Shown here: positions 31,689-59,294 of the stretch, one piece after another
Position numbering within the stretch: the first letter of the stretch is position 1
How the letters are laid out: every line of letters begins with the position of its first letter
Assembly (NCBI GenBank): GCA_030629005.1
Contig: DAOVPV010000007.1
Coordinates: 6,356 to 70,355, forward strand
DNA length: 64,000 bases
DNA from: a bacterium
Lineage (GTDB): Bacteria; Babelota; Babeliae; Babelales; UASB340
Direction: 5' to 3'
The notes under the pieces: generated by a model
The model's input: the letters and a program-made list of their open reading frames with translations, nothing else
Told to the model about the DNA's origin: nothing
The model's database searches: none
Program-made: the position numbers and the translations under genes

Positions 31689-32308
31689 AAAGACTCTATA
31701 TTAATAACAACTTATATAAACTAGAAATAAAAAATTCTGATAAAAATAATTTTTTAATAACAATGAACAATAAAGAAGTTACAGTAATAAAAAAATCGGA
31801 AGAACACACCCAGTCTTCGCGCAAGGCTTCGACGGGTACGGCGAGTGTGGGAACATTTAATGTTAGCGAAGAAAATAATAATATTTTATTAGAAATAAAC
31901 GGCAAACTATATAAAGCAAAGAAAATTAAACAAACAAAATATTATACAGAAATTTACATCTATAATTTTAATACGTCTTTTAAAATACAAAATAAGCACA
32001 AATCAAAAATAATACCCGCAAGATTAGCTAATACTAATAATGTTTTTAAAAATAAATTATTTGCACCAATTCCAGGCAAAGTCATAACAGTTCACTGTAA
32101 ACCCAATGATTTTGTAAAAAAGAATCAAACACTCATTACAATAGAATCTATGAAGATGGAAAACGAAATAAAAGCATTCACGGACTGTTTTATAAAAAAC
32201 ATTCAAATTACCAAGCTCGATTTGGTAAGACAAGATGATGTGTTAATAATTTTTTCTAAAAAGGGAGAGAATAGCCGTGGAACAAAAAATAAAAATGGGC
32301 CAACGTAA
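31679..32308 (+). CDS. accB: Biotin carboxyl carrier protein with N-terminal BT-like domain
   Basis: APIPGKV...ESMKMENE biotinylation motif; overlaps accC end; contains a 23-aa repeat-derived insert. Confidence 0.88.
   Translation: MAIKRLYINNNLYKLEIKNSDKNNFLITMNNKEVTVIKKSEEHTQSSRKASTGTASVGTFNVSEENNNILLEINGKLYKAKKIKQTKYYTEIYIYNFNTSFKIQNKHKSKIIPARLANTNNVFKNKLFAPIPGKVITVHCKPNDFVKKNQTLITIESMKMENEIKAFTDCFIKNIQITKLDLVRQDDVLIIFSKKGENSRGTKNKNGPT
31796..31864 (+). repeat. 69-bp nested element, in frame in BCCP (SEEHTQSSRKASTGTASVGTFNV)
   Basis: TCGGAAGAACACAC-CCAGTCTTCGCGCAAGGCTTCGACGGGTACGGC-GAGTGTGGGAACATTTAATGTT; 2 mismatches to 55634-55702. Confidence 0.95.
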
Positions 32309-32678
32309 ATTTAGAATCGGTGAGCTAGCAGAACAATTAAATGTAAAAAAGTTTGTTATACGCTTTTGGGAAAAAGAGTTTGACCTAAAATCAGATCGAT
32401 CCGGCGGAGGACAAAGATTCTATTCTCAAGAAGACTTCGAAAAATTCACTTTAATAAAGAATCTTTTATACGTAAAAAAATTCACAATACCAGGAGCCAA
32501 AAATCAAATTCAAAGCTTAAATCATTCAAACAATATAACTCCTGCAATAAAGGAGCCGGAGCAAAATAATCCTCAAATACAAGAAGATTCCACAAATGAA
32601 TACAATGAAATATTCACAAAAATAAAACACCTCAAACAACAACTAGAAAACTTTGCTGCAAAATTAAACTTTAAATAA
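32277..32678 (+). CDS. MerR-family HTH transcriptional regulator
   Basis: FRIGELAEQLNVKKFVIRFWEKEF..RSGGGQRFYS. Confidence 0.9.
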   Translation: MEQKIKMGQRKFRIGELAEQLNVKKFVIRFWEKEFDLKSDRSGGGQRFYSQEDFEKFTLIKNLLYVKKFTIPGAKNQIQSLNHSNNITPAIKEPEQNNPQIQEDSTNEYNEIFTKIKHLKQQLENFAAKLNFK

Positions 32679-32682
32679 TCAA

Positions 32683-33372
32683 TCACTTAATAGATAAATG
32701 ATGTACGCAAGCCGGCGGTATATTCGCTAGAACTTTATCCTGGTCAAATTCAAACTTATTAACAAAATCGTTTGTTGTTGTAATTGTTTTAGAATATTGA
32801 TTTTTTTTCTCACCAGTTAAAAAAAACAACTTAACTTTAGCTAAAGCAATATATTCAAAATAAGAAATTATACCGCCCGGTTTTATTAAACCCTCGTACG
32901 TCTTCAAAACTTGTTTTAAAAAATCTGCAGAAAATGCATTAAATGGCAAGCCTGAAATTATATAATCATATAAATATTTAGGCTTCCAATCCAATATAGA
33001 AACACAATTAATTTTTACATTTTTGCGTTTCCCAAATTTTTCATTCAAAATTTCACAAAAATCAGAATCTAACTCAACAATATCCAGCTTATCCTGAGTT
33101 CTCAACTTCTTTAAAATATTAACAGTCATAGAACCTGTTCCAGCTCCAACCTCTAATATTCGTACCGGCTCACCAAAAATATTTATGTGCTTTGTTACAG
33201 CATTAGCCAAAAATCTAGAACTTGGAACTATCGCACCAACAGAATCGGGCTTGGCCAAAAATAATTTAATAAAAACAAAGGAATCGCTAAAAAAAGATCT
33301 AAAGTTTGGAAAAACAAATATTAAAGAAAAAAATAAAAGCGCAACAAACAACCAAGATCTACTTTTCTTCAT
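32683..33372 (-). CDS. Class I SAM methyltransferase, PmtA-like phospholipid N-methyltransferase
   Basis: VGAIVPSSRFLA, LEVGAGTG, ISGLPF, NIPPA; N-terminal membrane anchor. Confidence 0.75.
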   Translation of the reverse strand: MKKSRSWLFVALLFFSLIFVFPNFRSFFSDSFVFIKLFLAKPDSVGAIVPSSRFLANAVTKHINIFGEPVRILEVGAGTGSMTVNILKKLRTQDKLDIVELDSDFCEILNEKFGKRKNVKINCVSILDWKPKYLYDYIISGLPFNAFSADFLKQVLKTYEGLIKPGGIISYFEYIALAKVKLFFLTGEKKNQYSKTITTTNDFVNKFEFDQDKVLANIPPACVHHLSIK

Positions 33373-33503
33373 AAAATACCTTTTATTTTATAAAAAACTT
33401 CTTATAAATTATAAAAAATAATATACAATATAATCCTACTCAACAAATGTTATTGTAAATAGTATCAATTTATAATTTAAAGTAAAAGTGAAGAAATTTT
33501 TAA

Positions 33504-34331
33504 ATGTCAGAACAAAAAGCTTCCATCTGTGGTTTTTTACTAATAAACAAACCACAAGATTATAGCTCCTATGATTGCATAAGAGTTATAAAAAAAATAA
33601 TAAAAAACAAACAAATAAAAATCGGACACACCGGCACATTAGACAATTTTGCCCAAGGGCTGTTAATTATAGCAATAGGAAAAGCAACAAAGAAAATAAG
33701 TCTATTCATGAACCTAGACAAAACATATATCGCAACGGGCAAGCTTGAAGAATTAACAGACACACTAGATTTAACAGGAAATGTAGTTTCAAAATCGGAA
33801 AAAACATTTAATGTTAGGGAAATCGCAACATCTCAAGATAAACTTTCGAAAGAAATATTTAATGTTAATGATGTTGTTAATAGTTTTGCCGGAAAATACT
33901 GTCAAACACCGCCAATATACTCCGCGTTAAAATATAAGGGAGAATCCTTATACAAACTAACAAGAGAAAAAAAAATATCCGAAGAACAATTAAAACATAT
34001 TATAGAAACCAAAAAGCGAACCATAAACATTTATAAAATTGATCTACTCGAATATAATCACCCGTTTTTTAAAATCAAAACACATGTTTCTAAGGGAACA
34101 TATATAAGATCTTTGGTGAATGATATTGCAGAAAAACTAAATACACATGCAACATGTTACGACCTAATAAGAACAAAAATAGGAACAATTGACGTTAAAA
34201 ACACTATCAATCTTTTAGATCTAAAAACTATAGATGATATAAATAACAATTTAATACCAATAGAAATACTGGAAAATAAATTAAAAAATGATTTAAGTCC
34301 TAATAATTTACCAAACAAAACAAATATTTAA
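33504..34331 (+). CDS. truB: tRNA pseudouridine(55) synthase
   Basis: INKP, KIGHTGTLD, QTPPIYSALK, VSKGTYIRSL; two 7-aa inserts. Confidence 0.95.
   Translation: MSEQKASICGFLLINKPQDYSSYDCIRVIKKIIKNKQIKIGHTGTLDNFAQGLLIIAIGKATKKISLFMNLDKTYIATGKLEELTDTLDLTGNVVSKSEKTFNVREIATSQDKLSKEIFNVNDVVNSFAGKYCQTPPIYSALKYKGESLYKLTREKKISEEQLKHIIETKKRTINIYKIDLLEYNHPFFKIKTHVSKGTYIRSLVNDIAEKLNTHATCYDLIRTKIGTIDVKNTINLLDLKTIDDINNNLIPIEILENKLKNDLSPNNLPNKTNI
33795..33815 (+). repeat. 21-bp core element variant, in frame in truB (SEKTFNV)
   Basis: TCGGAAAAAACATTTAATGTT. Confidence 0.9.
33846..33866 (+). repeat. 21-bp core element variant, in frame in truB (SKEIFNV)
   Basis: TCGAAAGAAATATTTAATGTT. Confidence 0.85.
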
Positions 34332-57859: not shown

Positions 57860-57908
57860 TCGGAAGAAACATTTAATATTAGTGAAATCGGAAGAAATAT
57901 TTAATATT
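57860..57908 (+). repeat. Two tandem 21-bp core variants (57860-57880, 57888-57908)
   Basis: TCGGAAGAAACATTTAATATT; TCGGAAGAAATATTTAATATT. Confidence 0.9.
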
Positions 57909-57944
57909 GTTGTGCGTTTTTATTTTATTTATAAGGAGAATTGT

Positions 57945-59234
57945 ATGAAAAAAATATGCACGCTGCTATTTTTAGCACTGTTTTTGGGTAAATCGGTTAC
58001 CGCCGGAACAGGTTGGGCAAGATTTGATAACGTTTCAGATCTAAAACGAAATGGTAAAAAAATTATAATGGAAGTCGATGTAAATAAAAAAGGCTACAGA
58101 AAAAGAACGATTCTACCAGGAAAAAATTCTGATAGAATTGCACTTAAAGGTCTTCTCATGACCGTTCCAAATATAAAACCAACTATTAAAGTTTGGGATT
58201 GGACCAGAAACAATAAAAAAGGTGAATATTTAGGATCTTTCACTTGGAATAAAAATATCGACATTGCAAACAAAAAAACAACAACAATTGAACTCCGCTA
58301 TATGTCAAGTCAAAACCCTCCTTTACAACGAAAAATAAGTGAACCAGAAAAAGGCTTAACTGCAAGAACAAAAGCAAAAAAGACAAAAGAAGCCTTTGGT
58401 AAATGCCTTGGCGGCATTGGCATGCTAGAGCTAATTGCACCAACGAATAATAATATCATCGTAAAGTACAGAATGGTTGGAACTACGAAATGGATTAAAA
58501 GAAAAATTAACAAGGGTGACCGCAAAAAATTTCCTACAGGCAACAAAGACCAAGATATACGCGACATGGTTGTAGGCTATGCTGGAAAAAGCGCGCCTGA
58601 TGGCTGGTATGGCACAACCTCAAACAACAAAAACTTCTCTCTATTCCCAAGAAGATTGTTCACAGAAAATGTACGAATTTGGGAAGGTAAAGCAACAGAA
58701 GTGAGATTTAAAAGAAAAGGAAACATAATTACAAGAAGAATAACCGAAGGCAAAAATAATAAAAAATTAAAAAGAGAAACCGGTTCTTTTTTCGATAAAG
58801 ATAAAGTTGTAATACTAAATACAACAGGCCAAGAATTTAGAATGACTTTAGGTGCTGATGCTGCAAAAAACTTAAAATATGAAGTCCAGACTATTGGCAG
58901 TCTTTTTAGTCCCCAATCCAGCATAATTTTAAGGGGAAATCGTAAATGGACAACAGATAGCATTCACCGGGCAAATAAAAATGCAATGTTCGACAACTTA
59001 TTAAAAGATGCTTTTTCTTCTGACATTAAAGGCATTCAGTTAATAAAACACATTAAAGGCGACAAATATATAATTGTAGACGTACAAGAATTCCGTACAT
59101 ATAAAGAACCCAACTTTAAAGACTATGTCGGACTTGAAGAAAAAATGAAACTTCAAACAAATAGATCTACAGTGGCGAAAATTTATACTGGTGATGATGG
59201 TCGATATAAATTTGCCGTATCTCAACCGGTTTAA
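57945..59234 (+). CDS. Secreted basic hypothetical protein; N-terminus related to the two downstream paralogs
   Basis: AAGGAG RBS; MKKIC..VTA|GTG; PNIKP motif. Confidence 0.75.
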   Translation: MKKICTLLFLALFLGKSVTAGTGWARFDNVSDLKRNGKKIIMEVDVNKKGYRKRTILPGKNSDRIALKGLLMTVPNIKPTIKVWDWTRNNKKGEYLGSFTWNKNIDIANKKTTTIELRYMSSQNPPLQRKISEPEKGLTARTKAKKTKEAFGKCLGGIGMLELIAPTNNNIIVKYRMVGTTKWIKRKINKGDRKKFPTGNKDQDIRDMVVGYAGKSAPDGWYGTTSNNKNFSLFPRRLFTENVRIWEGKATEVRFKRKGNIITRRITEGKNNKKLKRETGSFFDKDKVVILNTTGQEFRMTLGADAAKNLKYEVQTIGSLFSPQSSIILRGNRKWTTDSIHRANKNAMFDNLLKDAFSSDIKGIQLIKHIKGDKYIIVDVQEFRTYKEPNFKDYVGLEEKMKLQTNRSTVAKIYTGDDGRYKFAVSQPV

Positions 59235-59258
59235 TACTTTTGTGAATTATGAATTTAA

Positions 59259-59294
59259 TCGGAAGAACACGCGAGTGTGGAAACTTTTAATGTT
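59259..59294 (+). repeat. 36-bp intermediate element
   Basis: TCGGAAGAACACGCGAGTGTGGAAACTTTTAATGTT. Confidence 0.92.

Follow-up and report, generated by a model that had tools for sequence, protein, structure and literature searches.

The stretch of DNA considered here (the window, 64,000 nucleotides long, positions 6356-70355 of contig C11 of a bacterial genome assembly denoted G000) raises a simple question: how does a sequence of 21 bp, TCGGAAGAAACATTTAATGTT, come to recur in a set of discrete larger sizes, each of which contains the smaller ones? An earlier note on this DNA had described a nested architecture of 21, 36 and 69 bp, every tier a multiple of three, and had offered two ways of getting there: either small elements serially target one another, or the 21-mer is the footprint that remains when the longer forms lose their inner part. 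Our answer, which we consider reasonably probable, is that the 21-mer is a very small non-autonomous mobile insert which spread in one lineage of the Babeliales, and that the longer forms arose by the insertion of hairpin modules into it.

Within the window, the 21-mer has 12 matches at up to three mismatches, against 0.03 expected from shuffled sequence. In G000 as a whole, 110 copies are found at up to two mismatches (88 forward and 22 reverse, about one per 9.5 kb). A genome-wide survey of the spacing between the two arms of the repeat gave discrete classes: 21 bp in 100 copies (the count at the arm stringency of this survey, the 110 being the count at up to two mismatches), 36 bp in 13 plus one degenerate copy, 69 bp in six, and 68 bp and 99 bp in one each. 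Twelve other arm spacings were set aside as chance pairs of half-sites, one of which ends in a true 21-mer. Of 14 raw pairs at 36 bp, one was likewise discarded as due to chance. About nine copies in the genome are 69-mers or their decay products. The single 99-mer (G000:C6:13375-13473) is a fourth tier that the earlier note had not reached, in which the apical loop of the 33-nt GC hairpin houses a further GC hairpin of 30 nt. Irregular decay products number about five (a 60-bp, a 68-bp and a 37-bp copy, a left fragment, and one 69-mer with eroded arms) versus about 130 regular copies, so that the tiers are discrete and do not grade into a continuum of random deletions. The rule of threes holds for the modules (21, +15, +33 and +30) and breaks down in decayed copies, such as the one of 68 bp.

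The larger sizes are also distributed differently from the smallest one. The 21-mers are spread over all contigs, albeit in clumps (variance-to-mean ratio 1.55 in 10-kb bins). The 36-mers are strongly clustered, with six inside 18 kb of contig C2 and four inside 3 kb of contig C6; the nearest neighbor of the same tier lies at a median of 1.2 kb, versus 29.6 kb when the tier labels are shuffled, a value reached in none of 2000 shuffles. Such clustering fits a local spread of the composite unit. Clustering of the 69-mers is weak (238 of 2000 shuffles).

The host of these repeats is taken to be a member of the Babeliales (Dependentiae), because the closest relatives of its biotin carboxylase AccC come from Candidatus Babeliales genomes (49% identity). 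Its assembly comprises 1.05 Mb in 15 contigs, with about 30% GC, 95% completeness and about 89% of the sequence in open reading frames (ORFs), and it was compared with three genomes of the same genus (the congeners G001, G002 and G003) and with 37 further relatives. The 21-mer has no copy in the three congeners, and among the 37 further relatives it occurs in one only, as a single copy with one mismatch. This match (TCCGAAGAAACATTTAATGTT, G009:C2:20505-20525, in a genome of the same family) lacks the G-A found downstream of the copies in G000, and may be a chance match or a relic. The consensus 21-mer has no exact match in the JGI metagenome contigs; a degenerate form gave 13 single matches there and one in viral contigs, which lie in unrelated contexts and were taken as chance.

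The whole genome of G001, with a median protein identity to G000 of about 70%, served as the reference for empty sites. When the 100 21-mers were followed into it, 37 lay outside ORFs, 10 in ORFs with no G001 hit (153 ORFs of G000 have no homolog there) and two outside the alignment, leaving 51 that could be aligned. In 17 of them, the alignment has a gap of exactly seven residues, at the element or right beside it; another 31 have gaps of other sizes within variable stretches, and the remaining three have no simple gap. The larger tiers behave similarly: a 12-residue gap faces all three alignable 36-mers, a 23-residue gap one of the two alignable 69-mers, and a 29-residue gap the 99-mer. At the cleanest junction, in trmD, G000 reads GGG, the 21 bp and CCA where G001 reads GGC and CCA, with nothing duplicated. 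No target duplication at the 21-mer was found at the clean junctions of this comparison, where the three bases preceding the element do not match the three following it. The 21-, 36-, 69- and 99-bp units are insertions relative to the congener.

The window sites from which the nested architecture had been drawn up are all present as described. They comprise the 21-mer, the 36-mer at 59259-59294 with its left part alone at 47965, the 69-mers of tier 3 at 31796, 52059 and 55634, and the 60-bp copy with a 9-bp deletion at 57526. Together with further copies of the repeat, and with the GC-rich hairpins that stand free or behind tRNA genes, the features of the window are the following:

30552-30572, plus strand: 21-mer, in frame (SEETFNV) in the biotin carboxylase AccC; 7-residue gap in the G001 ortholog
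31796-31864, plus strand: variant-1 69-mer, lying in frame within the ORF of the biotin carboxyl carrier protein
33795-33815, plus strand: 21-mer with one mismatch, in TruB; 12 extra residues of G000 span this copy and the one at 33846
33846-33866, plus strand: 21-mer with two mismatches, in TruB
34374-34394, plus strand: 21-mer, between ORFs
36074-36094, plus strand: 21-mer, in the ORF at 35633-36403 of the tol gene cluster
47176-47196, plus strand: 21-mer, intergenic, upstream of tRNA-Ala
47223-47263, plus strand: free GC-rich hairpin module, with a 26-bp direct duplication on both sides (47197-47222 and 47264-47289)
47353-47385, plus strand: GC hairpin trailer, directly after the CCA of tRNA-Ala (tRNA at 47277-47352)
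47965-47986, plus strand: truncated left part of a 36-mer, beginning TCGGAAGAACACACGAG
51236-51256, plus strand: 21-mer, antisense inside the ORF at 50881-51561
52059-52127, minus strand: variant-2 69-mer, close to the C-terminal end of the TrmD-fusion ORF
52353-52373, minus strand: in-frame 21-mer of the TrmD-fusion ORF, with the cleanest of the empty sites
54265-54301, plus strand: 37 bp left of a 69-mer after internal deletion (a decay product), adjoining the stop codon of ffh; an addition to the earlier note
55634-55702, plus strand: variant-1 69-mer, at the ffh start or upstream of it; the G001 alignment begins at residue 28
55842-55903, minus strand: hairpin of the trailer type that immediately follows the tRNA-Phe CCA and holds a nested second module (tRNA at 55904-55978)
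55988-56008, plus strand: 21-mer with one mismatch, intergenic
57526-57585, plus strand: 60-bp copy, a variant-2 69-mer with a 9-bp deletion
57860-57880, plus strand: 21-mer with one mismatch, upstream of the likely true start of the ORF at 57780-59234
57888-57908, plus strand: 21-mer with two mismatches, 7 bp past the copy at 57860
59259-59294, plus strand: 36-mer, intergenic; an ATG at 59309 lies 14 bp downstream
62536-62556, plus strand: 21-mer, intergenic

The genes among which these features lie, between 30 and 62 kb of the window, are housekeeping genes: accC, the biotin carrier protein gene, truB, the tol cluster, ftsH, a murC-like gene, rplS, the trmD fusion and ffh. In the trmD fusion, which is found in G001 as well, a single ORF of 510 residues (window 52035-53567, minus strand) combines TrmD with a further RNA methyltransferase domain that is SAM-dependent (PF09936). 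The C-terminal part of AccC (window about 31520-31600) carries a tandem peptide repeat, KLEQSKLEQSKLEQSQLEQ, which is absent from the G001 ortholog.

The earlier note had further suggested that copies could expand or collapse between 21, 36 and 69 bp at a single locus. None was seen to do so: in Logan contigs from four runs of one study, no 15-bp or 33-bp indel occurs at any element between window positions 51000 and 59400, a weak check given that contigs drop rare variants. A 689-bp contig from another sample spans 57441-58129 without gaps. The joints in this comparison correspond to other genomic copies of the repeat.

The insert that sets the third tier apart has a history of its own. This GC module of 33 nt has the build CCAG-N-C TTCGC..AAGGCT.. 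G-N'-C GG(R)CA(Y)GGC, and free copies of it lie outside the 21/36 host in G000. A 26-nt pattern of the module is matched in 25 of the 41 Babeliales genomes, against no match for the reversed control pattern. Apart from G000, the module is carried by 24 Babeliales genomes that are without the 21-mer, and by one more, G009, which has both. The GC module is thus best regarded as a separate element, older and more widespread than its 21-mer host. Of the copies of the module, 41 of 46 in G000 and 28 of 32 in G001 have a Watson-Crick N/N' pair in the stem, with all four pair types in use; because the pair covaries, the stem is under constraint.

Wherever its surroundings are legible, the module occupies the loop of another hairpin. 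It is found in the loop of the CACAC/GTGTG hairpin of the 36-mer, in the loop of a GTAG-type repetitive extragenic palindromic (REP) hairpin in G001, in the loops of both REP hairpins flanking a Y1 transposase gene in G002 and G003, and in other modules, including those that trail tRNA genes. A clean example of nesting is offered by tRNA-Val(tac): in G001 the CCA is followed by TACTTCGCCAAGGCTTCGTATGG, and in G000 there are 32 additional bases, themselves a module, after AAGGCT. The two variants of the 33-bp insert that had been noted at the same position of the 69-mer are real, and are distinguished by a compensatory change from GTC..GAC to GCC..GGC among other differences. They differ from each other at 5-10 of 33 bases and from free copies at only 1-3 of 33 (C14:83905 for variant 1, and C10:2719 and C6:4253 for variant 2), which points to at least two separate acquisitions of a module at the same position.

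Several other placements of the module were encountered. The trmD ortholog of G001 (G001:C4:13952-14110) carries an in-frame GC module, LPAFAQGFGGQAG, at a place where G000 has a shorter, unrelated-looking stretch; hence the congeners carry different intragenic modules. Another repeat family, ACTGGATCCTGAAACAAGTTCAGGATGACA, which numbers about 15-28 copies in G000 and some 10 in G001, often has the GC module directly after it. Upstream of tRNA-Ala, at window positions 47197-47289, the 26-bp duplication around the free module includes the first 13 bases of the tRNA, and it looks as if a module had entered the 5' end of the tRNA gene, an intact copy of which was then restored.

The module has a second favored location, directly behind tRNA genes. 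In 30 of the 40 tRNA and tmRNA genes of G000, the encoded CCA is directly followed by NNN-TWCG, which opens a hairpin of the module build (NNN-TWCGC..GCTWY-N'N'N'-TGG), followed by CAGGCCA and often by a run of T. The same trailer follows 16 of 42 such genes in G001, 8 of the 24 tRNAs sampled in G025 and 3 of the 19 sampled in G019; in G025, many other tRNAs are followed by a second type of hairpin with the same TGGCAGGCCAG tail. Between G000 and G001, the first type of trailer can be present at one ortholog of a tRNA and absent from the other: tRNA-His, Gly(gcc) and Lys(ctt) carry the trailer only in G000, and Gln(ttg) only in G001. It follows that a trailer can be acquired or lost and is no constant component of each gene. 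A search of the window against Rfam returned no match at gathering score other than two tRNAs, and no family for the repeat.

This link to tRNA genes goes beyond the earlier note, and so does the orientation of the 21-mer with respect to replication. The TCGGAAGAA strand lies on the C-rich strand in 109 of 121 copies (90%; binomial p = 1e-20), and the orientation flips where the GC skew flips in contig C8. No link is seen with the strand of the surrounding gene (39 same, 33 opposite). The G-rich strand is taken as the leading strand because the ribosomal protein operons lie on it, in addition to the GC skew itself; the complement of the 21-mer would then lie in the lagging-strand template. Downstream of the element, position +4 is a G in 90 of the 110 copies, and position +5 an A in 80 of them. 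The motif is common to copies inside ORFs (60 of 71) and outside them (30 of 39), and on the other strand it reads as TC-NNN immediately 5' of the element. Because there is no duplication, the orientation is linked to replication and a short motif lies 5' on the fork-exposed strand, the geometry resembles that of IS200/IS605 elements.

A candidate enzyme is encoded in the genome. One gene of G000 (C6, about 5990-6367) specifies a Y1 transposase of the IS200/IS605 type (PF01797, E = 1e-27), which scores 83 bits on the NCBIfam model transpos_IS200 (NF033573, cut-off 55) and 29 bits on the RAYT model (cut-off 80); its nearest solved structures are the ISDra2 and IS608 TnpA proteins. The gene is flanked by inverted 52-bp repeats forming GTAG-type hairpins, of which there are about ten genomic copies, mostly in inverted pairs. 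The flanked-gene arrangement (G000:C6:5800-6520) is also found in G001-G003, and a second, degraded Y1 copy lies at C9:33437-33748. Reverse transcriptase, TnpB and IS110 were not found in the 95% complete G000, and its only tyrosine recombinases are two Xer-like ones, which are present in all four genomes of the genus. That the Y1 enzyme mobilizes the 21-mer is put forward as a hypothesis. As a post hoc observation, the 42-kb contig C6 holds the only intact Y1 gene, four of the 14 36-mers, the only 99-mer and one eroded 69-mer; the other cluster of 36-mers (C2, 75-93 kb) is not near a Y1 gene.

The copies also have preferred reading frames. In all tiers, one and the same frame of the three on each strand is closed by TAA. 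Same-strand intragenic copies use the SEETFNV frame in 35 of 39 cases and opposite-strand copies the TLNVSS frame in 28 of 33, a preference which the flanking GA (Asp/Glu codons) and TC (Ser codons) alone would favor. Thirty-nine of the 110 21-mers lie outside ORFs, that is, in 11.4% of the genome, and are thus over-represented there threefold. Because of this excess and the two preferred frames, selection appears to remove many intragenic insertions and to keep those that are in frame and tolerable. With about 89% of the genome in ORFs, lengths in multiples of three and the two frames would accordingly be those that survive selection.

It remains to weigh the direction in which the tiers were built. 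In the alternative already raised in the earlier note, a composite of at least 69 bp is the mobile unit, and the 36- and 21-mers are footprints left by hairpin-driven slippage or excision. GAA direct repeats surround the 15 bp that separate the 36-mer from the 21-mer, deletions within copies are known from the 60-, 68- and 37-bp products, and the shortest form is by far the commonest, as a deletion bias predicts; moreover, the 21-mers and 36-mers show similar divergence from their consensus, neither being visibly older. The third tier is difficult to accommodate, however, because deletion would need the repeated, exact loss of 33 bp between 1-nt repeats, the only repeats that flank the module, and yet the module begins and ends at the same points in every copy, whichever of the two 36-mer subtypes carries it. 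Insertion is also the better reading of tiers 3 and 4 because the module is older and more widespread than its host, occurs in loops elsewhere, and has variants in the 69-mers that are closer to outside relatives than to each other. In addition, the 21-mers are dispersed over all contigs and the 36-mers confined to two local clusters, and the sporadic losses are irregular (9, 1 and 32 bp), unlike the discrete tiers. Taken as a whole, a series of deletions appears to us unlikely. For tier 2 the case is thinner, with the sequences of the 36-mers favoring insertion. There are two subtypes, TCGGAA-GAA-CACACGAGTGTG-GAA-ACATT and TCGGAAG-AAA-CACACGAGTGTG-AAA-CATT (the module-bearing form of the latter is the 68-mer), for each of which a single inserted hairpin and a duplication of 3 nt suffice, the two insertion points being 1 nt apart; turning one subtype into the other needs two indels. 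Serial targeting, the first of the two routes originally offered, is therefore supported for tiers 3 and 4, and the step between 21 and 36 bp may have run either way.

Two further explanations were weighed. The 21-mer might be a functional polar DNA motif, kept since a protein reads its orientation relative to replication, and spread through its benefit to the host. The 90% co-orientation with GC skew and the density of a copy every 9.5 kb or so would suit such a role, and the 13-nt perfect palindrome AACATTTAATGTT in the 21-mer would suit a dimeric DNA-binding protein. However, the polar motifs known so far consist of short words created by point mutation, while the copies here are whole 21-bp units inserted in essential genes at a cost of seven extra residues; they are missing from all three congeners, they are clumped, and they decay and carry nested inserts that split the motif. 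We consider this account improbable. The other possibility is that selection acts on the heptapeptide SEETFNV in many proteins and that the identity of the DNA is a by-product. This would agree with the SEETFNV reading of 35 of the 39 same-strand intragenic copies, but it is already contradicted by the 39 of the 110 copies that are outside ORFs altogether and by the 33 intragenic ones on the opposite strand, with the TLNVSS reading. Forty-one listed copies are, moreover, identical in DNA, without synonymous variation, and such a protein-level motif is hardly credible.

The small mobile insert with nested hairpin modules is thus the explanation that we favor, and its steps can be laid out as follows. 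A 12-nt CACAC-GA-GTGTG hairpin would enter the 21-mer with a 3-nt duplication to give 36 bp, a 33-bp GC-rich hairpin would enter the loop of the 12-nt hairpin to give 69 bp, and another GC hairpin would enter the loop of the first GC hairpin to give 99 bp, each composite then spreading as a unit. Insertion would probably take place into single-stranded DNA at the replication fork, catalyzed in trans by the Y1 transposase or another enzyme, with the conserved G-A three bases downstream as the presumed target preference.

A number of observations weigh against this explanation and should be stated with it. The decay products of 60, 68 and 37 bp mean that deletions do occur, and the GAA repeats flanking the extra 15 bp could drive the collapse of a 36-mer into a 21-mer by slippage. 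The 12-nt hairpin of tier 2 was not found alone, and neither movement nor length polymorphism was observed in the contigs of the four runs from one study. Free GC modules have no strand bias (11 vs 10). Predicted folding energies are not better than those of shuffled sequences (z from -3.0 to +0.8), so that it is the covariation which carries the case for structure. As for the insertion step, G stands at +4 in only 5 of the 17 aligned empty sites of G001, and the motif is thus not shown to be the target. The Y1 gene is also present in G001-G003, which are without the 21-mer, so its presence does not explain the burst. Furthermore, the 21-mer is unlike the 52-bp repeats beside the Y1 gene and has a single palindrome, AACATTTAATGTT, which is weak and of the AT type.

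Repeats with some of these properties are known from other organisms. Rickettsia palindromic elements (RPEs) are about 100-150 bp long. The 21-mer resembles them as a short palindromic repeat of a reduced, intracellular-type genome that lies in frame in conserved genes (here AccC, TrmD, TruB and others) and is absent from the orthologs; it differs in its 21-bp unit, its host phylum, its strong replication-strand bias and its discrete nesting series, the two being set side by side by description. In Di Nocera et al. 2013 (PMC3733652), RPEs are described in frame in conserved protein genes, including TruB, and as absent from orthologs, the pattern of tolerated in-frame inserts is described for RPEs and intragenic REPs, and REPs are reported inside small palindromes. 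REP and REPIN elements with their RAYT transposases are treated in Bertels and Rainey 2011 (PMC3116915). A placement directly after the tRNA CCA is absent from the REP descriptions consulted in these two sources.

The likeness to REP and REPIN elements lies in the GC-rich imperfect hairpins with compensatory stem changes, in the copies found in ORFs, in the nesting in palindromes, and in the inverted GTAG-type hairpin repeats that flank the Y1 gene. On the other hand, the Y1 protein passes the IS200 model and not the RAYT model, and the repeats flanking its gene are a third family, neither 21-mer nor GC module, in whose loops the module is a passenger (G002, G003). The complementary strand of the GC module has GTAG or GAAG inside an internal loop and not at an end, while the GTAG/CGTC tag of a REP stands at one end.

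IS200/IS605 elements make no target duplication, have an orientation tied to the direction of replication, and carry a hairpin at each end. The 21-mer shares the first two properties, has TC-NNN 5' of the element on the lagging-template strand, and resides in a genome that encodes a TnpA-type enzyme. It lacks, however, the pair of end hairpins in its 21 nt and is unlike the repeats of the resident Y1 gene, there is no TnpB in G000, and catalysis by the enzyme is only predicted here. Cyanobacterial small dispersed repeats of 21-27 nt, in work said to go back to Elhai and colleagues in 2008, reportedly look mobile and insert into each other and into coding regions. They belong to another phylum and have other sequences, and the comparison is by description only; we know of no replication-strand bias or tRNA-trailer link for them. 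Similarly, the GC clusters of yeast mitochondria are GC-rich hairpins in an AT-rich genome that lie inside genes and inside each other, but they are organellar, have no sequence relation to the module, and are compared by description only.

The repeats described here are best read as a new variant of REP-, RPE- and small dispersed repeat-like sequences, and not as a tested member of any of these families. Searches of the open-access literature returned nothing relevant on such repeats in Dependentiae or Babela. As far as these searches go, the combination of a 21-nt unit with 90% replication-strand bias, the four-step nesting, and an order-wide GC hairpin that prefers hairpin loops and the base after CCA are new. 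A wider picture may be sketched, although we offer it tentatively and with more doubt than belief. The Babeliales might carry undescribed mobile GC hairpins that home to exposed single strands, namely hairpin loops and the post-CCA site, where the TGG of the hairpin itself pairs with CCA; one lineage would have added a 21-nt element which inserts in one orientation relative to the fork and has given seven residues to dozens of essential proteins.

If this is true, an insertion chemistry of the type "hairpin into loop" is still alive and has left the tiers as its record, with about 20-35 nt of DNA being all that it requires, and the tiers would offer a natural succession whose nesting steps can be traced one by one. 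The 21-nt element would be among the smallest mobile units known and would push down the lower size limit for DNA that spreads, and its strand bias provides a testable handle on the mechanism, insertion into single-stranded DNA at the fork. For the genomes themselves the consequences are practical as well. The inserts add 7-33 residues to conserved proteins, and short-read assemblies are interrupted at them in predictable positions, which makes them relevant to the annotation and binning of Dependentiae genomes. The presence of a GC hairpin after most tRNA genes in an order of intracellular bacteria may, in turn, bear on how such reduced genomes end or process their tRNA transcripts.

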